A stretch of DNA of 32,000 nt from Promethearchaeota archaeon (lineage in GTDB: Archaea; Asgardarchaeota; Odinarchaeia; Odinarchaeales; JBHLKK01), in the NCBI GenBank assembly GCA_048939465.1, contig JBHLPL010000004.1:750-32749 (forward strand). The letters run 5' to 3'. Below are positions 10,748 to 27,982 of the stretch, piece by piece; positions within the stretch are counted from its first letter, which is position 1; each line of letters starts with the position of its first letter. The notes beneath the pieces were generated by a model. The model worked only from the letters and a program-made list of their open reading frames with translations. It ran no database searches and was not told where the DNA came from. The position numbers and the translations under genes are program-made.

Positions 10748-11902
10748 TCAGATATGGCTTTTAGGTATGAGTTCATTGTCTGTGTCTGCAAAACGGTTCT
10801 TGGCGATTTCTCTTTTCTTCGTAGCTTGTTTGATGAGGTTTTCCAGTCCTTCAGCTGCTTCCGCCTGTGACTTGAGTTCGATGTATCCTTTCTTTACAGC
10901 TTCGTCAAACAATTGTTTGCCAAAAGGCGTTCTTGAAATTACAAAACACCAGCCGTCTGGAGCGCCTTGAGAACCCACGTTTATATCTGCCAGTTCGCCT
11001 GTAAGATCGGTGCATTCTTTGCATGCCTCCAGAGAATGTTCCTTGACCTCCTTGAGTTTCGCTGCTATGACCTCTTTGCTGCCCTGATAGGCATAGAAGA
11101 CTCCTTTCTTAATGTCGAATTTTGTAATGCTCTTCATGTCAAACCCTTTTGATTCTACGAAGAGCTTTATTCCATCGTAATGGAAATTATCCCAGCAGAA
11201 AACGCTAATGAAGAACTTGACAATCTCCGTGATCTTCAGGGTTCCGTGCTCGGAATACTGCATCTTTCTTAGTGATTCTGCTTGACAGGGAGTTCCCACA
11301 ATAGCAAGACTTCGCAAGTGAGAGGGGCCCGGAATATACTCATCGTATTCTTGGTATGCATATCCTAGCAGGGAATTATTGGGGGAAACCGTATATTTTG
11401 AGCCTGCTGCATTTAAGATAGCATCTTGAGATTGGGCCAGCATGGGGACGGGTTTCCAGGGAGTCTCAGGATCGGTGCCGGTCACAATTGCGGCCTTGAT
11501 GTATTTCTTGTCCATGGCGTACGTAAGGAGAGCCGTAACTACACCTCCATCCTGACAGCCCCTTCTAATTGGCCTGGCTTTTGCTCTCGCTATGGCGTAG
11601 GACTGGTATATTCCAATTGGTTCGTCTTCATTTCTTGTACGGCCGAAAAGGTCCGTTTCTGCAAGTTTGAAATCTAGGCCGAATCTGGGACAATGGGTAA
11701 CACACATACCACATTGCTCACACCTTGAAACCGGGACTGGCTTTTCATCTCTATAACCTATGGCAGCTATCGGACACGAGGAGATACAGCCGCCACAAAA
11801 CATACATCGGTCTTTCTTAATTATGTTTACCAGAAGGTCTCCAAACTTGTATTTGAAGGAATCTTTCCTTGCCATTCTTACTTCCGGAGCTGCTTCAGTC
11901 AT
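10748..11902 (-). CDS. Coenzyme F420 hydrogenase/dehydrogenase beta-subunit (FrhB/FdhB) family protein with N-terminal 2x[4Fe-4S] ferredoxin domain
   Basis: CMFCGGCISSCP, CEQCGMCVTHCP, QDGGVVTALL, AAGSKY, IVGTPCQ and CKECTDLTGELADINVGS motifs. Confidence 0.92.
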   Translation of the reverse strand: MTEAAPEVRMARKDSFKYKFGDLLVNIIKKDRCMFCGGCISSCPIAAIGYRDEKPVPVSRCEQCGMCVTHCPRFGLDFKLAETDLFGRTRNEDEPIGIYQSYAIARAKARPIRRGCQDGGVVTALLTYAMDKKYIKAAIVTGTDPETPWKPVPMLAQSQDAILNAAGSKYTVSPNNSLLGYAYQEYDEYIPGPSHLRSLAIVGTPCQAESLRKMQYSEHGTLKITEIVKFFISVFCWDNFHYDGIKLFVESKGFDMKSITKFDIKKGVFYAYQGSKEVIAAKLKEVKEHSLEACKECTDLTGELADINVGSQGAPDGWCFVISRTPFGKQLFDEAVKKGYIELKSQAEAAEGLENLIKQATKKREIAKNRFADTDNELIPKSHI

Positions 11903-15166: not shown

Positions 15167-15507
15167 TTGCATACCATAGAATATATCTCCCTCAACAAGA
15201 CATCGACCTCAATCCAAATTCTTTGAGTTGCTTGAGATCAAATCACCCAAACAACGTTTGAGGGGTATTAATTTCCAAACCAATCTTCTCAATCGACTTT
15301 CATGGTTAGAACCCTTCAAATAAGAAACCTTTTATGTTTGTGTTTTTTAGCTTCGTAATGGAATAGTCAATCGAGAGATTCCTCTACCTCAGTATCTTAT
15401 TGAGGGAATATCTAAGTAAGATATCATTTAATAGGTACGTCAACAAAAAGTTTAATCAGCAGAGTCTAACCAAGGAATCGTACTATGAATGCGGGAGTGA
15501 AGCCCTC

Positions 15508-18500
15508 TTGGTCTTCATCAAGAAAATTGAAATGAAGGGGTTTAAGTCCTTTGGGAATCAAAAACTGATATCGCATTTTCCTAGGGGATTCACCGCCGTA
15601 GTCGGTCCAAACGGGAGTGGAAAGAGCAACATTTTGGATGCCTTTTGCTTTGTCTTAGGACACTTGAGCGCCAAAACAATGAGAGCCGGATCCTTCTCAG
15701 ATTTGATATACTCGGGCGGGGATTCATCGCCTTCTGCCAAATATGCCCGTGTAACGCTCTACCTCGATAATTCAGATGGGGGGATCCCTATCGATTCATC
15801 TTCAGTTGTGGTTGCCAGGGTAATAGATCAGGAGGGTCGGGGCGCTTACTGGCTAAATGGTAAGCGAGTGACAAGAAATCAAATCATCGATCTACTTGGG
15901 ATGGCAGGCATTTCTCCCAACGGTTATAATATTGTTCTTCAGGGGCAACTGGCCCAGTTCATCCAAATGAGTCCAGTAGATCGAAGAATATTAATTGAAC
16001 AAGTTGCAGGTATTGCAACATATGATGAAAAGAAGGAGAAAGCATTAGGCCAGCTAAAGCTAGCAGAGCAGAACCTTTCTAAAATCGAACTTCTGATCAG
16101 AGAAGTTATGAGCGAACTGGAAAGGCTGGAAAAAGAGAAGAATGATGCAGTAAGGTGGCAAGAGCTTTCAAAAGAGATCAAGAAGTCTGAAGCCTTAGTT
16201 GTGTTTAACGAACTGCAAAATACAGAACAAGAGCTATCCGGAAATCAAATACTGATCGACGAGAAGAAGAAAAGACTTGATAGACTGGAGAAGGATGGTA
16301 CTCAGCTCAGCCTAGAAGTGAGTAAGAAAAGAGAAAGATTAGAGGAAATCGATGCGGAAATTAGAACAAAACAAGAGGATGAGCTTGAGAAAGTGCGAGC
16401 TGAGATAAACGAGCTAAATCGCTTGGTATCTCAGATGGAAGCCGACTTCAGATACTTGAACAACCGATATGAAGAGGGTAAAGAAAACCTACAGAAACTC
16501 GATCATGAGAGTAAAGAGATTGAGGATCTGATTCAAAGACTGCATAATGAGATTCAGAAATTAAAGGAGCAAAAGACCGCGATTCAGTCCAAGATTGCAC
16601 AAAAGGATGAACTTACTTCCGAAATAACCCAGCACATATCCCAGAGAGATACAACATACAGCGCGAGCATAGTCAAACTCAGGAACATCCGAAAGCAATT
16701 GGACTTGAAGAGAGGCGAGCTTGCAGATATCTCGACCCAAAAGAGCGTCATCGAAAAAGAGTTGTCCTACCTTTATGAAGATCGAAAAAGTCTAGAATCG
16801 ATACACTCAGAGAGAAGCAAGAGAGTGGAAGAAACCATAAAAAGAAAAGAAACTCTTGAGGCTGAACTTAATCAAGTCAGATCTGAGATAGAATCCCTCG
16901 AAAAGCAGAAGCGGGAGGCAGATGAAGAGACACGATTAACGGTAAAACAGCTTAGGACGACTGAGGAATTGGTAAGGAACGCGAGAGAAGAAATCATAAA
17001 ACTAAAGGTACGCATAAACTCAATCAGAGAGGCGCGAGCACGCTTTCTCAGAAGCAGACCGGCTGTGCATGAAGTGCTTGAACTACGCGATAACAACGTT
17101 GTTGAAGGGATATTTGGAACTATAGCCGAGCTAGGCGTTGTTAGTTCTGAGTACGCAACCGCTTTGGAGGTCGCAGCTGGAGCTAGACTAAGCTATGTAG
17201 TTGTCAGGGACGACGATGTCGCTGCAAAATGCATAAACTATCTCAAACAGAAAAAGCTAGGCCAGGCTTCTTTCTTGCCTTTGAATAGATTAATTCTGCA
17301 GACACCCAAAGAACAGATCAGGGGTAAGGGTGTAGTAGCCCCTGCAATAGAGCTAATACGGTTTGAGGGGCAGTATAAGCCAGCTTTTGATTATGTTTTT
17401 GGGAGAACACTAATAGTAGACGATCTGAATACAGCCCGTTTCTTGAAAGCCGGCTCCAATCTTAGAAAAGTCACAGTCGATGGGGACGTCGTCGAGCCTA
17501 GTGGGCTAATGACGGGTGGCCATTACATCAAACCAGTCAAAATTACGCAGGAAGACGAAGAGACTCTGCCTAAGGTAGAGGAACAACTAAATGGCCTAAT
17601 AAAGACCCAACTGGATCTTAGAGACAAACGAGATGGCTTAATCGCCAGCATTGACAAAGTGCAAAATGAATTACTTCAAAAGAGAGAGAAGCAGAGCGAG
17701 ATTACCGCAAAATTGGAGAGCATAAACCTTCAAGTTCTGGAAGAAGAAAAGTCTCTTAACGAAATTCTTCCAAAGATGAGCGAAACTCAGGATATAGTGG
17801 ACGAGAAGAAAACGAGTCTTCAGACTTTGGAAAATCAAAGTGCCAAGGTTGAAAAAGAAACACAAGAGTTATCAAGACTAAGCGAAGAGCTAAGCGAAAT
17901 CGTTGAACGTTCTACTGTCGCTGAACTCAATGAGAAGATCAAAGCCCTTGAGAAGGAGCGTGAACAACTTAAGGATTCTGCCGCGAATATTGATGTCGAT
18001 TTGACTCAGAATCAAACTAGGTTAAACTATCATCTTCTTCCTCGAAAAGATGAGATTCTCTCAGTCATCTCTAAACTGGAAGAAATGCTTCCCGAGCTTG
18101 AGAAAGAGCTTCTAGCCAAAGAGACTGAATTAGATGAGCAGAGAGAGATATTTGGCAAATTTCACGAAGAAAAGGGAAGAATAGAGGGCTTAATAGGAAA
18201 GCTTCAAAAAGAAAAGCAAGAAATCTATCTCGGAATCCATGAGAAGACAAACAAACTCTCCGGCATGGAAAAGGAACTCATGGATCTGCGACTTGAAATC
18301 AATAGTCTTGAAGTCAAGGGAGATAACTATCAAAACAGGCTAGTCGATCTTAAGTCAAAAGCGCAGGAATACATTTTGTTTAAACCTCCCGAGATCGTTG
18401 AGATAGACGTTCGGAAACTAGGGGAAAGAGTTAGGGAACTTCAGGAGGAGAAGATGGCGCTTGAACCAATCAATCAGAAAGCGATACTCAGATACCCAAC

Positions 18501-19071
18501 AGTCAAAGAGCGTTATGATGAGCTCTCGGAAAAACAGAATAGACTTCTGATAGAAAAAAATTCAATAGTTGAGTTTATGGATGAAATCGAGAGGGAAAAG
18601 ACGAAAGTCTTCATGTCAACCTTTAACGAGATCAATCGTAATTTCAATAGAATATTCGGTCAGCTTTCTCCCGGTGGAGAGTCACGTCTGGTTTTGGAGA
18701 ACGAGATGCATCCTTTCATGGGAGGCATTCGGATAAAAGCAAATCCCGGAGGAAAGAAAGTACTCTATCTTGAGGCCATGTCTGGGGGGGAGAAGGCACT
18801 CACTTCTCTTGCGTTAATCTTTGCCATACAAAGGTGTCAACCAGCACCTTTCTATATATTTGACGAGGTTGATGCTTCTCTGGACTTGGCAAACGTCAAA
18901 CGGGTTGCTGAATTGATAAAGGAGTTCTCCAAAGACTCACAGTTTATAGTAATATCGCTGCAAGACGTAATGATGGCTAGGGCAGATTCTCTATTAGGAC
19001 TCGTTAGAAAGAGAGATCATTCAACCATCGTTTCGGCAAAACTGGAGCAGGGCGCAAGATACATTGAGTGA
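15508..19071 (+). CDS. smc: Chromosome segregation protein SMC
   Basis: FIKKIEMKGFKSF, Walker A GPNGSGKS, long coiled coils, hinge GDVVEPSGLMTGG, signature MSGGE, Walker B YIFDEVD. True start is TTG-15508 after GGGAGTGA. Confidence 0.98.
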   Translation: MVFIKKIEMKGFKSFGNQKLISHFPRGFTAVVGPNGSGKSNILDAFCFVLGHLSAKTMRAGSFSDLIYSGGDSSPSAKYARVTLYLDNSDGGIPIDSSSVVVARVIDQEGRGAYWLNGKRVTRNQIIDLLGMAGISPNGYNIVLQGQLAQFIQMSPVDRRILIEQVAGIATYDEKKEKALGQLKLAEQNLSKIELLIREVMSELERLEKEKNDAVRWQELSKEIKKSEALVVFNELQNTEQELSGNQILIDEKKKRLDRLEKDGTQLSLEVSKKRERLEEIDAEIRTKQEDELEKVRAEINELNRLVSQMEADFRYLNNRYEEGKENLQKLDHESKEIEDLIQRLHNEIQKLKEQKTAIQSKIAQKDELTSEITQHISQRDTTYSASIVKLRNIRKQLDLKRGELADISTQKSVIEKELSYLYEDRKSLESIHSERSKRVEETIKRKETLEAELNQVRSEIESLEKQKREADEETRLTVKQLRTTEELVRNAREEIIKLKVRINSIREARARFLRSRPAVHEVLELRDNNVVEGIFGTIAELGVVSSEYATALEVAAGARLSYVVVRDDDVAAKCINYLKQKKLGQASFLPLNRLILQTPKEQIRGKGVVAPAIELIRFEGQYKPAFDYVFGRTLIVDDLNTARFLKAGSNLRKVTVDGDVVEPSGLMTGGHYIKPVKITQEDEETLPKVEEQLNGLIKTQLDLRDKRDGLIASIDKVQNELLQKREKQSEITAKLESINLQVLEEEKSLNEILPKMSETQDIVDEKKTSLQTLENQSAKVEKETQELSRLSEELSEIVERSTVAELNEKIKALEKEREQLKDSAANIDVDLTQNQTRLNYHLLPRKDEILSVISKLEEMLPELEKELLAKETELDEQREIFGKFHEEKGRIEGLIGKLQKEKQEIYLGIHEKTNKLSGMEKELMDLRLEINSLEVKGDNYQNRLVDLKSKAQEYILFKPPEIVEIDVRKLGERVRELQEEKMALEPINQKAILRYPTVKERYDELSEKQNRLLIEKNSIVEFMDEIEREKTKVFMSTFNEINRNFNRIFGQLSPGGESRLVLENEMHPFMGGIRIKANPGGKKVLYLEAMSGGEKALTSLALIFAIQRCQPAPFYIFDEVDASLDLANVKRVAELIKEFSKDSQFIVISLQDVMMARADSLLGLVRKRDHSTIVSAKLEQGARYIE

Positions 19072-19346
19072 AATGCCCTGAGGAAAGGAGCTTATGACCA
19101 TGCTTGACCTCAATTCGTTCTCAGGCTTTAATTCAACCAAATGTCAAATAGGGGGAGGCATTTCAACGCCCCAGCCCTGTGATCCCCGTATTGTGTCTGC
19201 CTGCACAGTACATCTTACTCATCCCTCTCACAGGTCTTTGACTGCTTTCTCCCTTTCAGGGAATGCTTTCAGACCTATCGGCACGTATAGCACAAGCGTA
19301 TCTAGGGATCCCTTGATCCCTCCATCCGTTCGTATGAAATCTCTTT
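19069..19346 (-). ncRNA. Structured intergenic element B between smc and scpA (homologous motif to element A)
   Basis: TGAAATGCC/GGCATTTCA, GGGATC/GATCCC, AGGTCT/AGACCT and TCCC-TGAAA-GGGA stems; 28/32 and 10/11 matches to element A. Confidence 0.45.
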
Positions 19347-19349
19347 GAG

Positions 19350-20063
19350 GTGATTAGGATAGAGAATGAAGAGGAATCTGCAAAAGACGAAGAAGAGTTT
19401 TGGCTGCAACCGCCTTGGACATTGCTAACAGATGTAGTCAAGCTAAGCAAAGTAAGTCCTTGGAACATTGATCTTGACGAGTTAGTCCACGGCTTCCTCG
19501 AAAAAATGTTGACCTTGAGTCTAGTTAATTTTAGAGTCTCTGGCATTGCATTGCTCTCAGCATCAATTCTTTATCGTATGAAGACTGAGCTGGCGCTGAC
19601 TTTAGGCGAGGGGGAAGAGGAGAGCAATCTGTCTGAGGAGTTTAAACTCCTTCCTCCTATCAGACCTCCATTTCGCCTGGTTAGTCGGAAAGTCACCATA
19701 GATGAGCTACTGATAGCGCTGGAAGACGCTCTCCGCCAAGAGGTTGAGAGTAAAAAGCGTAAGCCAGTAACGAAAACAATAGAATTAGAGACACCTGATG
19801 TTGTTTACGAAGTAGAGCCCGACAAAGCTGAAATAGAAAAGACGCTAGCACTGGTTTACGAAAGAATAAGGACGTTAAGCCACAACGGGGAACCAATAAG
19901 ATTCTCTCAGCTCATTTTAGAAAAAAGAAAAATCATTATGGTCAGAACGTTTGTCTGTATTCTGTTGCTCAGTTTCAGAGGCAAGATAGACATCTGGCAA
20001 GAGGAACCGTTTGGCGAGATTTTTGTAAAGCTATTGGAAGAGGGGGACACAGATGACGAATAA
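19350..20063 (+). CDS. scpA: Segregation and condensation protein A (kleisin)
   Basis: SPWNIDL, FRVSGIALLSASILYRMK, and C-terminal RTFVCILLL...IDIWQEEPFGEI; located between smc and scpB. Confidence 0.92.
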   Translation: MIRIENEEESAKDEEEFWLQPPWTLLTDVVKLSKVSPWNIDLDELVHGFLEKMLTLSLVNFRVSGIALLSASILYRMKTELALTLGEGEEESNLSEEFKLLPPIRPPFRLVSRKVTIDELLIALEDALRQEVESKKRKPVTKTIELETPDVVYEVEPDKAEIEKTLALVYERIRTLSHNGEPIRFSQLILEKRKIIMVRTFVCILLLSFRGKIDIWQEEPFGEIFVKLLEEGDTDDE

Positions 20064-20634
20064 CAAGAACAAGGCACTAATAGAGGCAGCGCTATATATT
20101 TCAGGAAGACCCCTCAATCCTGAAGAGCTCTGTGAAGTAGCAGATTTGGAAAGAAACTCAGTTGACAAACTAATAGCAGAGCTAATCGACGATTATAACG
20201 GAAGAGATAGTGCTTTAGAGATTGTATCTCTTTCCGGAGGGCGATACGCATTACAACTTAAGGCAGATTTTTCTCCCTTGGTTGCTAGATTTGCACCAAC
20301 CGGTCTACTTTCTTTGGGAGCCCTAAAAACGCTCTCGTTGATTGCACTAAGACAACCTATTATGCAGACCCAGGTTGTAAAAATACGTGGTTCTCATGTT
20401 TACAAGCATATTCACGAACTTGAGGACAGGGGATTTATCAAGGGGAAACCTGAGGGTCGGACACGCGTCCTATCTACTACCAAAATGTTCGCAGACTACT
20501 TCGGATTTGACTATGATTTGAGGAGATTGAAACTCCAGCTTAGATGGCTGATGAGGAAGATGAAGAGTGAAGAAGAAGTGACACTTGAGGAGGAGCTGAT
20601 GCGCGAACCAATGGCATATGAAAAGGATAAATAG
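20053..20634 (+). CDS. scpB: Segregation and condensation protein B
   Basis: LIEAALYISGRPL, LKTLSLIALRQPI, IRGSHVY and TTKMFADYFG motifs. Confidence 0.95.
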   Translation: MTNNKNKALIEAALYISGRPLNPEELCEVADLERNSVDKLIAELIDDYNGRDSALEIVSLSGGRYALQLKADFSPLVARFAPTGLLSLGALKTLSLIALRQPIMQTQVVKIRGSHVYKHIHELEDRGFIKGKPEGRTRVLSTTKMFADYFGFDYDLRRLKLQLRWLMRKMKSEEEVTLEEELMREPMAYEKDK

Positions 20635-22468: not shown

Positions 22469-22834
22469 CTATTCGAGTTGTTCGAGTGCTAATTTCAGGT
22501 TTCTGATGATTAATCCCACGCTGGGAGTAGCATCCTCTCCGGCTATCGCAAGCAGGAATAAGTCGTTGGAGCGTACTAGTATTGCGTGGCCTTCTGCTCC
22601 AGTGACGTGAACAACGCTTACGTTTCCTTTTTCAATGCTATCTGCCAGTTTCTCCGATTCGCTGAGCGTCTTCATCGCAATTTCCGAAATGGCTTTGTGA
22701 TCCATTTCAGTTATTGTTTGGCCAGTTATGATTTCTCCGTCTGAGTTGAAAGCGATAATTCCTTCTATCTCGGGAAGGTTATCCATCAGTTTGGCAAGTA
22801 CAGATTCTATCTCCTCTTTTTCCGCTTCACTCAT
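22469..22834 (-). CDS. Roadblock/LC7 domain protein (1 of 4)
   Basis: LPEIEGIIAFNSDGEII helix-strand-strand-helix pattern and C-terminal VGLIIRNL helix; 121 aa. Confidence 0.8.
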   Translation of the reverse strand: MSEAEKEEIESVLAKLMDNLPEIEGIIAFNSDGEIITGQTITEMDHKAISEIAMKTLSESEKLADSIEKGNVSVVHVTGAEGHAILVRSNDLFLLAIAGEDATPSVGLIIRNLKLALEQLE

Positions 22835-22876: not shown

Positions 22877-22925
22877 GAATCTCTGATATAAATCCTTTAA
22901 CGAATCTCTGATATAAATCCTTTAA
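22877..22925. repeat. Perfect 24-bp tandem duplication (GAATCTCTGATATAAATCCTTTAA x2) containing a BRE/TATA-like element
   Basis: Copies at 22877-22900 and 22902-22925. The minus strand reads AAAGGA-TTTATAT in each copy. Confidence 0.9.
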
Positions 22926-23065
22926 TATATGAATATCTTAAGTATAATTATTAGTAATTAAACTAATCTATTAGACCCGCGTTGTATGTTGGAGAGTTCA
23001 CAATTCGAAAAGAAACTCTAAGCGAGCAGTTGAAATCAAGCAAAAAAGAGCAAAATAGGAGATTA

Positions 23066-23353
23066 ATGATGATAGGACAAGATGATATAAAATCTACCTT
23101 GAAGAACCTGCAGAAATTCAAAGGAGTACGAGGTGTAATTGTAACCACAACGGAGGGGCTACCAGTTAGCACAACACTCGACGTTGAAAAAACCGAAAAA
23201 ACATCGGCACTGGTTACGTCGCTTGTAGGAAAGGCAAGATCTGTCATCAATGAACTGGATGAGGGCGGTCTGAAGTTCCTTACTATATCCACATCGAGTG
23301 GAGAAGTCTACGTAGCGCCAGAAGACGAGTACATACTTATAGTCCTCAAATAA
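23066..23353 (+). CDS. Roadblock/LC7 protein, dynein light chain roadblock (DYNLRB)-like (2 of 4)
   Basis: 95 aa from ATG-23066 after an AGGAGA SD. Motifs [33 protein letters not shown] and LKFLTI...[15 protein letters not shown]. Confidence 0.9.
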
Positions 23354-23411: not shown

Positions 23412-23882
23412 TTGATCGATTTGAAATCCTTTGACAAAATCCTGAGTAAGGTCATCAAAAGCGAGACAGGGATAAAGAAGGTAATCCTGGTGGACAGAAC
23501 AGGTTTGACAATAGCGCACGTATCGAAGTTTTCCTACTATCCGGTTGACATTGATGGGATTGGTGCTATCGCCAGCGCAGTATTCAGTGCGAGTGAGGAA
23601 CAAGGAAAGAATCTTGATATAGGAGATCTCGACCTTGTGACCTCAGAATTCAACGATGGGAAGATATTTGCAGCTAGCTGTGGCAAAGGCGTACTGTGTG
23701 TAGTAACAGACCATGATGTCAACATAGGTATGATCAGACTAGTTATGAAGAAGACGAGTGACGAACTCAGGGAAGTTCTAGAAGAGTTTCTGGCCGAAAA
23801 ACCCATAGTACCCGAAGTAACAGCGGAAAAGGATGAAGAAGAGGAAATCAAAACAGCCCTTGGAGAACTCGAAAAAGCCTAA
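23412..23882 (+). CDS. Roadblock/LC7 protein, LAMTOR2-like, with acidic C-terminal extension (3 of 4)
   Basis: VILVDRTGLTIA, GAIASAVF, GKIFAAS and VLCVVTDHDVNIGMIR motifs. Confidence 0.82.
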   Translation: MIDLKSFDKILSKVIKSETGIKKVILVDRTGLTIAHVSKFSYYPVDIDGIGAIASAVFSASEEQGKNLDIGDLDLVTSEFNDGKIFAASCGKGVLCVVTDHDVNIGMIRLVMKKTSDELREVLEEFLAEKPIVPEVTAEKDEEEEIKTALGELEKA

Positions 23883-23914: not shown

Positions 23915-24289
23915 ATGTCAACTGCGCCCAAAAGTGAAACGCTTGAAGACATTCTCAAAGACCTTGAGATGAATATTCCGCAAATCCAAGCAACAGCCAT
24001 CGTGAGTGTTGAAGGATTGCCCATTGCCTCAGCACTTCCAACTGGAGTTGACGAGGCCATGATTGCTGCTATGACAGCAGCAATGCTTTCTTTGGGAGAA
24101 AGAGCTGCAGCCGAGCTAGGAAAAGGAGAGCTAGAACAGGTGTTCGTAAAGGGGCAGGATGGATACATCATTGCAATGGGGGCAGGGCCTAATGCTGTAT
24201 TAACAACCAGTGCTACAAAAGATGCGAAGATCGGTTTAATTTTCTTGGAAATGGAGCGGGCTGCGGAAAAGATTGCAAAATTGGTGTAA
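23915..24289 (+). CDS. Roadblock/LC7 protein, MglB/COG2018-type (4 of 4)
   Basis: AIVSVEGLPIASALP, IAAMTAAMLSLGERAAAELGKGELEQVFVKG and IGLIFLEM motifs; ATG-23915 after GGGAG. Confidence 0.9.
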   Translation: MSTAPKSETLEDILKDLEMNIPQIQATAIVSVEGLPIASALPTGVDEAMIAAMTAAMLSLGERAAAELGKGELEQVFVKGQDGYIIAMGAGPNAVLTTSATKDAKIGLIFLEMERAAEKIAKLV

Positions 24290-24464: not shown

Positions 24465-25244
24465 ATGGTCAATCTGAAGAAGTTGCTACTAGGGCCACTA
24501 TACAGATTATACAGCTGGCGTCTATGGAAACAGGTTAAGAATGGGAGAAAACCGGGTCATATTGGTGTTATTCTCGACGGTAACAGACGATTTGCTCGAG
24601 AAAGAGGACTGAATGTCTGGATCGGGCATTACTTGGGAGCTGAAAAGGTTAGAGAGTTCCTATCATGGTGCTGGGAGGCAGGAATAAAGGTCGTTACATT
24701 ATACGCATTTTCCATTGAGAATTTTAGACGTAGGCGAAGGGAAGTCGAAGAGATCATGAAACTGGCCAAGTCAAAATTCGAGGAAGTTCTGGGGGATAAG
24801 AACATCCACAAATACAAGGTTAAGGTACGGACTATCGGCAGGAGAAACATGCTCCCTAAGGAACTGCAGGACATCGTTCTCAAGATTGAAGAGAACACCA
24901 AAGGTTACAGCGACCATCTCTTGAACGTTGCGATTGGTTATGGCGGAAGAGCCGAAATTGTTGATGCGTTCAGGAGCATAGCAACAGAAGTCTCAAAAGG
25001 CATTATTAGCCCAGAAGAAGTCAACGAATCGCTTATAGAGAAATACCTTTATACTGCTGGCCTACCCGACCCGGATTTGATAATTAGAACGTCAGGAGAG
25101 GAGAGATTATCTGGATTTCTTCTCTGGCAATCTGCATACTCTGAACTGTACTTCTGTGATGTGTACTGGCCGGCTGTAAGGAAGATTGATTTCTGGCGGG
25201 CCATCAGAATATATCAGCAAAGGGACAGAAGATTTGGGAGTTAG
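24465..25244 (+). CDS. uppS: cis-prenyltransferase (polyprenyl diphosphate synthase)
   Basis: HIGVILDGNRRFA, TLYAFSIENFRR, YGGRAEI, PDPDLIIRTSGEERLSGFLLWQSAYSE motifs. Confidence 0.97.
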   Translation: MVNLKKLLLGPLYRLYSWRLWKQVKNGRKPGHIGVILDGNRRFARERGLNVWIGHYLGAEKVREFLSWCWEAGIKVVTLYAFSIENFRRRRREVEEIMKLAKSKFEEVLGDKNIHKYKVKVRTIGRRNMLPKELQDIVLKIEENTKGYSDHLLNVAIGYGGRAEIVDAFRSIATEVSKGIISPEEVNESLIEKYLYTAGLPDPDLIIRTSGEERLSGFLLWQSAYSELYFCDVYWPAVRKIDFWRAIRIYQQRDRRFGS

Positions 25245-26758: not shown

Positions 26759-27982
26759 GTGGGAGGCGATTCTCTGAAACCACCGAGAGAGCTTTATCCA
26801 ATCCTGGCCTCAATGGAGTTTACTCCCAAGGCGAAGGCTCTCTTGAATCGATTTGCAACTATTCAGATCGCAGAGATGGAGAAAACAAAAGGATTGTCTG
26901 TTAAAGGCAAGTGGTATTGCTCTCTATTATCTCTATTCTCGAGAGTGATTGCCGAAAGACGGAGTCATAAGACCGTTGAGGAACTTGATGTTGAGGCTGC
27001 AGTGGTCCTCCACCACTATCTTATCACGCGTCCACAAATTGCAAGAATGGTGGAAGATGACAGACTGGGATTCTTCAAGCAACAAGTAAAGACTGCAACA
27101 GAGTTCTATGAATCCTTAATCGGAATTGATGTGGGACCTCAGGAGCTGGATCGATTAGCCGAAATTAGAAGTAATACATTCAGGTTCGTTAGTGAAATCG
27201 AAGAGATACCTCCAGATACGGTTTCAGAGATAGTCTCTAATATTGAAGATGTAGTAATGATGTTCATGTATTTACTCGTGAGCAATGAGGAGAAGTCGAA
27301 GATCGATATAGAAGACATAAACCGGGCGTACAGGCTATTTAGGATGATTACATTCAGAACGCCGTTATTGGATTTTGATACATTACATGATCTTTACCGC
27401 CTCTTACAGACTAATATCTATTCAAAAATGGATCGTCTAGAGATTAGTAGTACAAGTGAAGAATATCTCCAAGAGATTGTGAAAAAGGAAATGGACATTA
27501 AAGAAGATAAGGATCTCCAAAAAGAAAGTAGTAACTGGGAAGATATCCTTAAGGGGTGTATTCTGAGCATAGCTCAGATTTACAGTGTCAAGAAAAATGG
27601 TCTGAAAATAGGTAAAAGGGACCTAGACAACGCAGTTAGTATTTATCATAGAATATTGAATAAACTGATAGAAGACTTCGATGCCAAGGAAAAGGAATCG
27701 CTTTATGGCTTCATAAGAAATTTAAGCTTCAGTCTGGAATCAGAAAACGCATTAGCAGGATATAGAAGATGGTTATTAAGCGCGATCTCAGCTACAGCGG
27801 GTAGCGGTGCCATATTTAGGTATTCCAGCTTCGTTTTTAAACAGTCCCGCATGGTCGCCCTGTTTTCAGCCATAATGGCCTATAAGAATCAGCATGAAGT
27901 GGTGACCGTTGATGATATCAAGAAAGGGACACAAGTATACACGCACGTGCTATTGGATTTTGATTTTGATGCTCTAACCTAA
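26759..27982 (+). CDS. Hypothetical all-helical protein with four tandem AAA+ lid-like repeats
   Basis: 407-aa ORF; each roughly 100-aa unit ends in a V/I-x-x-x-D-V/I/L-x-x-A/G-type motif. Confidence 0.75.
   Translation: MGGDSLKPPRELYPILASMEFTPKAKALLNRFATIQIAEMEKTKGLSVKGKWYCSLLSLFSRVIAERRSHKTVEELDVEAAVVLHHYLITRPQIARMVEDDRLGFFKQQVKTATEFYESLIGIDVGPQELDRLAEIRSNTFRFVSEIEEIPPDTVSEIVSNIEDVVMMFMYLLVSNEEKSKIDIEDINRAYRLFRMITFRTPLLDFDTLHDLYRLLQTNIYSKMDRLEISSTSEEYLQEIVKKEMDIKEDKDLQKESSNWEDILKGCILSIAQIYSVKKNGLKIGKRDLDNAVSIYHRILNKLIEDFDAKEKESLYGFIRNLSFSLESENALAGYRRWLLSAISATAGSGAIFRYSSFVFKQSRMVALFSAIMAYKNQHEVVTVDDIKKGTQVYTHVLLDFDFDALT

Follow-up and report, generated by a model that had tools for sequence, protein, structure and literature searches.

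The window, that is, the whole stretch of 32,000 nucleotides that was analysed, contains a cluster of four roadblock genes, and this analysis concerns the short one among them, RBLC7. The plus-strand frame at 23066-23353 is open and codes for 95 aa, as had been noted in the preliminary description, but translation probably begins at the second ATG (23069), which gives a protein of 94 aa (23069-23353). The second ATG was preferred because the first ATG (23066) reads ATA in a sister genome, because RBLC7 orthologues are 94 aa long when counted from the position of the second ATG, and because a putative Shine-Dalgarno-like element, AGGAG (23057-23061, plus strand), is placed 7 nt before it. A scan with a sigma-70 promoter model, which is unsuited to archaea, gave results at chance level.

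RBLC7 matched Pfam Robl_LC7 (PF03259) with an E-value of 1.7e-20 and 73 bits against a cut-off of 23, while none of the NCBIfam models matched it. The predicted structure (pLDDT 89.6) has the element order alpha-beta-beta-alpha-beta-beta-beta of the roadblock fold. The stop codon follows directly after the strand of residues 89-94, so that the protein has no C-terminal helix. When the model was compared with known structures using Foldseek and VIA, 7F8F came first and DYNLRB next (Z 15.2 and 15.1).

Roadblock D (22469-22834, minus strand, 121 aa) is oriented divergently from RBLC7. On the plus strand, RBLC7 is followed by roadblock B of the MglB type (23412-23882, 156 aa), which has an acidic linker followed by a conserved C-terminal helix, and by roadblock C of the generic prokaryotic type (23915-24289, about 124 aa). 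The cluster is flanked by SMC-ScpA-ScpB genes upstream (15400-20634, plus strand), a conserved flank that is inverted compared with most other Asgard loci, and by a UppS-type cis-prenyltransferase gene downstream (24465-25244, plus strand), also a conserved flank; both are neighbours by position. In Odinarchaeum-family loci the place downstream of the cluster is taken by a p25-like/Zn-rich gene pair, whereas no dynactin-like neighbours were found in the window. Most Asgard lineages keep the C-terminal helix of roadblock B (23835-23882 in the window), which comes after an acidic linker that varies; in one family (f9) the helix is degenerate. Roadblock B passed the cut-off of Pfam MAPKK1_Int (LAMTOR3), and its alignment with Myxococcus xanthus MglB runs across the acidic linker and on into the C-terminal helix, which in MglB binds MglA (PMC6785124).

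Two other features of the window were recorded. A perfect 24-nt direct repeat (a 25-bp tandem duplication) lies at 22877-22925, immediately upstream of roadblock D in the intergenic region between the divergent genes; the sister genome lacks it, and it either arose by recent duplication or is an artefact of the assembly. A 407-aa ORF at 26759-27982 gave weak TIP49 AAA-lid-like Pfam matches below the cut-off and no NCBIfam match, and it was not among the conserved neighbours.

The best PDB match of RBLC7 was 7F8F (142 bits), to which it is identical at 71 of 94 residues (76%). 7F8F is Odin-RBLC7 from Odinarchaeota LCB_4 (OLS18093.1 / WEU39901.1), reported by Tran, Akil, Senju and Robinson in 2024 (PMC10933270). 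In that work the crystal structure was solved by molecular replacement with dynein roadblock, the protein is a homodimer without a C-terminal helix, DLRB1 and MglB were ranked as the closest structures, and a helix-binding site was proposed; the roadblock expansion in Asgard archaea, with RBLC7, was published there as well. RBLC7 is the orthologue of Odin-RBLC7, as indicated by the residue identity, by their grouping in both of our trees (100/95-96), where Odin-RBLC7 was the nearest row, and by gene order. The two proteins have the same length, and both lack the C-terminal helix. Their loci share the order D-RBLC7-B-C without a GTPase, and the genomes belong to different families of one order, that of Odinarchaeum. 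Judging from the identity to 7F8F, RBLC7 would also form a homodimer. The public record of another genome of the same genus, G001, gives Candidatus Hodarchaeota, while our grouping placed it in the Odinarchaeum order; the record is probably mislabelled.

The preliminary description had seen novelty in the level of similarity to DYNLRB, and this claim fell, since such a close orthologue had already been crystallised and compared with DLRB1, and other members of the Asgard group resemble DYNLRB just as closely. The RBLC7 gene alone thus adds little. The useful point is its context: this group, present in nearly all Asgard archaea and probably the nearest prokaryotic counterpart of a dynein subunit, usually sits in a cassette with an MglA-type GTPase and four roadblocks. 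Three core Roadblock/longin families were listed by Liu et al., Asgard MglA-MglB pairs were modelled before (PMC13408092), and the available parts of Tran et al. (PMC10933270) hold no phylogeny or gene context for Odin-RBLC7. In a literature search that reached a minority of subscription papers, we found no paper joining the phylogeny of Asgard RBLC7 and DYNLRB with this cassette.

The usual order of the Asgard locus is D, RBLC7, B, GTPase, C. Among 70 well-flanked loci, which are related so that the counts are not independent, the distance to RBLC7 was at most 3 kb for D in 54, for B in 59, for C in 59 and for the GTPase in 56, and at least one of the four was that near in all 70. Roadblock D adjoins RBLC7 even in loci where B, C and the GTPase are gone. 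In the genomes G008, G029 and G019, RBLC7 is followed directly by an MglA-type GTPase gene, and the 3 kb around it hold no further roadblock; for studying binding, this pair would be the least complicated case.

The cassette GTPase was assigned to the MglA type by its score of 126 bits to Thermus thermophilus MglA versus 48 or less for Arf. It keeps the motifs of the intrinsic Arg and the catalytic Gln, whose roles in MglA have been described (PMC3199381). In the window, the GTPase slot between B and C is empty, and in the order to which this genome belongs the MglA-type GTPase lies outside the cluster; beyond this order, about 10 of the 70 loci have no GTPase near RBLC7. The MglA orthologue of this genome has been relocated to another contig (C49, 11317-11868) and carries an in-frame TAA at 11635-11637, which may mark a pseudogene or an assembly error; it is intact in G001-G006, including G001 and G002 of the same genus. 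We dropped the candidate observation that family f9 lacks the GTPase, because diverged MglA-like genes appeared there at a lower threshold.

The similarity to the dynein light chain was measured in several ways. Using phmmer, residues 7-94 of RBLC7 aligned with human DYNLRB1 (PDB 1Z09) with 68 bits and one gap, and 37 identities were counted in 89 columns (about 42%), which bears out the earlier estimate of about 37 in about 86 positions with one gap. An independent local alignment with a mammalian-type DYNLRB likewise gave 37 identities in 89 pairs, with a raw score of 191, compared with 26 +/- 5 (maximum 52) in 1000 shuffles and only 40-49 for the three neighbouring roadblocks. When an insect DYNLRB was used as the PDB query, the best non-eukaryotic match was 7F8F with 63 bits versus 17 for the next prokaryotic one. 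The idea that RBLC7 has an unusually high similarity to DYNLRB was ruled out, as many Asgard orthologues are equally close: the mean identity to 31 DYNLRB-type sequences was 37.7% for RBLC7, among the higher values in a wide spread, and 38.9% for the top Asgard orthologue. Four residues are common to Asgard RBLC7 and DYNLRB and nearly absent from other roadblocks, with frequencies in Asgard RBLC7, DYNLRB and other roadblocks of 96/94/2% for F71, 89/100/0% for E80, 79/100/2% for P85, and 82/77/0% for K56.

A profile of Asgard RBLC7 matched 189 of 201 Asgard genomes, mostly with one copy each. In a search of 1.84 billion representative sequences, the best 150 matches consisted of Asgard members and DYNLRB-type proteins, whose eukaryotic identity was spot-checked, and no recognisable MglB-type sequence was among these 150. 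In the PDB, most DYNLRB chains reached 52-89 bits with the profile, other Asgard roadblocks about 30 bits, and LAMTOR2 18 bits; LAMTOR4/5 were not among the matches listed.

In both trees the Asgard group and eukaryotic DYNLRB were joined on one branch, with support of 98/94 in the first (115 rows, including one long-branch stray) and 100/96 in the second (65 rows). RBLC7 stood outside the generic prokaryotic roadblocks; a place among them would have spoken against the preliminary description. The branch joining the two groups is long. DYNLRB rows formed their own clade (99/83 and 100/100) within an unresolved polytomy, and RBLC7 was outside of that clade. The preliminary description had called this gene a close sister of DYNLRB; the association with DYNLRB stood, but the sister would be the Asgard group as a whole, not this gene in particular. 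The trees were built from 95 columns with seven bacterial rows and without LAMTOR rows, and the bootstraps were not fully settled. In AU tests, placing DYNLRB with B, or with C and the bacterial rows, was not rejected (p 0.32 and 0.25), and by this measure the tree does not decide the matter. Branch support, the reciprocal best hit and the shared residues favour the Asgard RBLC7 group as the closest prokaryotic group to DYNLRB, and the AU p-values and a tree without LAMTOR4/5 weigh against a firm placement.

RBLC7 shares the short architecture of DYNLRB1/2 (LC7, Robl), with a TM-score of about 0.87, but it differs from them in several respects. It lacks a one-residue insertion of DYNLRB and the basic beta3 motif with the invariant Arg at position 73: RBLC7 has T73 and S75, where the DYNLRB rows carry Arg in 100% and 87%. 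The beta3-beta4 region is basic in DYNLRB (mean charge +2.6) and neutral or acidic in Asgard RBLC7 (mean -0.9). Because of this difference in charge, the native ligand helix of RBLC7 is probably unlike that of the dynein intermediate chain. Conversely, the alpha2 face of small residues kept in RBLC7 is relaxed in DYNLRB: E44, A48, T51, S52 and G55 are conserved in Asgard RBLC7 and variable in DYNLRB, with G55 being Gly in 93% of the Asgard sequences. The statement in the preliminary description that archaea have no dynein agreed with our searches of this 91%-complete genome, in which dynein heavy chain AAA_6, LC8 and LIC gave no match, two of the searches being run without a positive control. 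By its predicted structure, RBLC7 would work as a DYNLRB-type clamp, though probably not as a dynein subunit.

The explanation to which we give somewhat more than even weight is that RBLC7 is an accessory adaptor roadblock dimer of an MglA/MglB-type switch that was later reused in dynein, and that eukaryotic DYNLRB arose from the Asgard RBLC7 group or next to it. In its favour stand the orthology to 7F8F with its dimer and groove, the clustering with roadblocks and an MglA-type GTPase, and the direct RBLC7-MglA adjacency in G008, G029 and G019. The RBLC7 dimer would act as a non-catalytic adaptor in the GTPase switch, with roadblock B as the likely cognate MglB and with a part comparable to that of the accessory proteins MglC or RomY. 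Its paired alpha2 helices, through the conserved small-residue face, may contact a protein of the cluster, either the GTPase or one of the other roadblocks. Because the C-terminal helix is missing, a groove would lie open, and it may take a helix of a partner, as DYNLRB takes the helices of the dynein intermediate chain. In eukaryotes, the clamp would have been kept and the alpha2 face relaxed upon reuse in dynein. The synteny makes it plausible that the partner is the product of a neighbouring gene, and the cassette names four small candidates and makes the role of the dynein light chain before dynein testable at the bench.

The cassette resembles the MglA/MglB switch of M. xanthus and T. thermophilus, with its accessory MglC and RomY, in that its GTPase is of the MglA type and carries the Arg and Gln motifs, one of its roadblocks is MglB-like and has a C-terminal helix, and further roadblocks are present. 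It is unlike that switch in having four roadblock paralogues and, in this order, an unlinked GTPase, and RBLC7, unlike MglB, lacks helix alpha3. G55 maps, via the alignment of the B family, to A64 of M. xanthus MglB, an MglA-contact residue, and in T. thermophilus MglB the corresponding pair of changes, A68/72R, makes the binding of MglA ten times weaker (PMC3199381). MglB has another contact position, G68, whose counterpart in RBLC7, S59, varies within the Asgard group; therefore, the support of G55 for an MglA contact is partial. The conserved small residues of alpha2 could simply serve dimer packing. Against the adaptor explanation, gene order is not binding, and the GTPase of this assembly is the unlinked gene with the in-frame stop described above; the relatedness of the loci, the roughly 10 loci outside this order that have no GTPase nearby, and the AU tests weigh on the same side. 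Prediction of a complex between the RBLC7 dimer and the last 30 residues of roadblock B, run without controls, gave a score of 0.03 and counts neither way. As for the C-terminal helix of B filling the groove of RBLC7, we ranked this candidate low: this helix aligns with the MglA-binding helix of MglB, and f9 combines a degenerate helix with an intact RBLC7.

A more specific version of the adaptor explanation is held only tentatively, at rather less than even confidence. It states that DYNLRB derives from a near-universal Asgard adaptor that clamped helices in an MglA/MglB polarity switch, and that the native partner is B, C, D or MglA. If it is true, one subunit of dynein was recruited from an archaeal small-GTPase module.

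The RBLC7 homodimer might instead act directly as a GAP on the MglA-type GTPase, in the manner of MglB, with a 2:1 complex formed via its two-helix face. This is consistent with the adjacency of RBLC7 and MglA in the three genomes in which no other roadblock is nearby, with the Gly at the position of MglB A64, and with the superposition of the RBLC7 fold on MglB (Z about 12). Roadblock B, however, looks more like the cognate MglB by the order of B then MglA and by its C-terminal helix; in addition, RBLC7 has only about 14% identity to MglB, and the position equivalent to G68 varies. We consider a GAP role unlikely.

Alternatively, the helix that RBLC7 clamps might belong to a protein from another locus, with both in a complex tied to the cytoskeleton that foreshadows dynein or dynactin; the gene order would then be historical. 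The genome contains an OdinTubulin orthologue (contig C134, 13873-15156; 704 bits to PDB 7EVH) and a p25-like/Zn-rich gene pair of the kind that follows the roadblock cluster in three Odinarchaeum-family loci, and the sharing of K56, F71, E80 and P85 with DYNLRB suggests a conserved binding mode. The pair is on another contig here, though, and its p62 Pfam match has an E-value of 0.028 and no PDB support. With the dynein components AAA_6, LC8 and LIC giving no match in the 91%-complete genome and the beta3-beta4 charge differing from that of DYNLRB, a cytoskeletal role appears quite improbable.

The four roadblocks might also form a Ragulator-like hetero-oligomer, in which RBLC7 would be a heterodimer with D, B or C. 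Four distinct and deeply conserved paralogues are clustered, D stays beside RBLC7 where the other genes are gone, roadblock B is above the LAMTOR3 cut-off, and RBLC7 itself has a weak LAMTOR5 match (19.6 bits, below the Pfam cut-off of 27). LAMTOR4/5, the short roadblocks of Ragulator, share the truncated architecture of RBLC7 (Z about 12-13), but their identity on structural alignment is 16-18%, and they form a heterodimer, not a homodimer. The homodimer in the 7F8F crystal (PMC10933270), the low score of the RBLC7 profile on LAMTOR2 compared with most DYNLRB chains, the LAMTOR4/5 chains missing from the listed matches, and the MglA rather than Rag type of the linked GTPase argue against such an assembly, and we give it little credence.

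Slow evolution or convergence among short roadblocks, in place of a sister relationship, is a highly improbable source of the likeness to DYNLRB: the trees had few columns, seven bacterial rows as a thin sample of non-Asgard prokaryotes and no LAMTORs, and the AU tests were not significant, but the composition of the best 150 matches, the reciprocal best hit in the PDB, the four residues nearly absent from other roadblocks and the 100/96 branch all speak against it.

Some further observations were made in this and related genomes. On contig C57 (4070-5756), a hexapeptide-repeat gene scoring above the Pfam DCTN5 cut-off is followed by a gene for the Cys-rich protein of about 380-400 aa that gave the Dynactin_p62 match; the hexapeptide-repeat gene may code for an ordinary gamma-carbonic-anhydrase-like protein. 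With the orthologue of this genome, OdinTubulin is represented in two families of the order. A second, fast-evolving RBLC7 paralogue was present at five loci in some Asgard lineages, and at one of them, in Hodarchaeales, two RBLC7 genes stand in tandem and adjoin a V4R gene.
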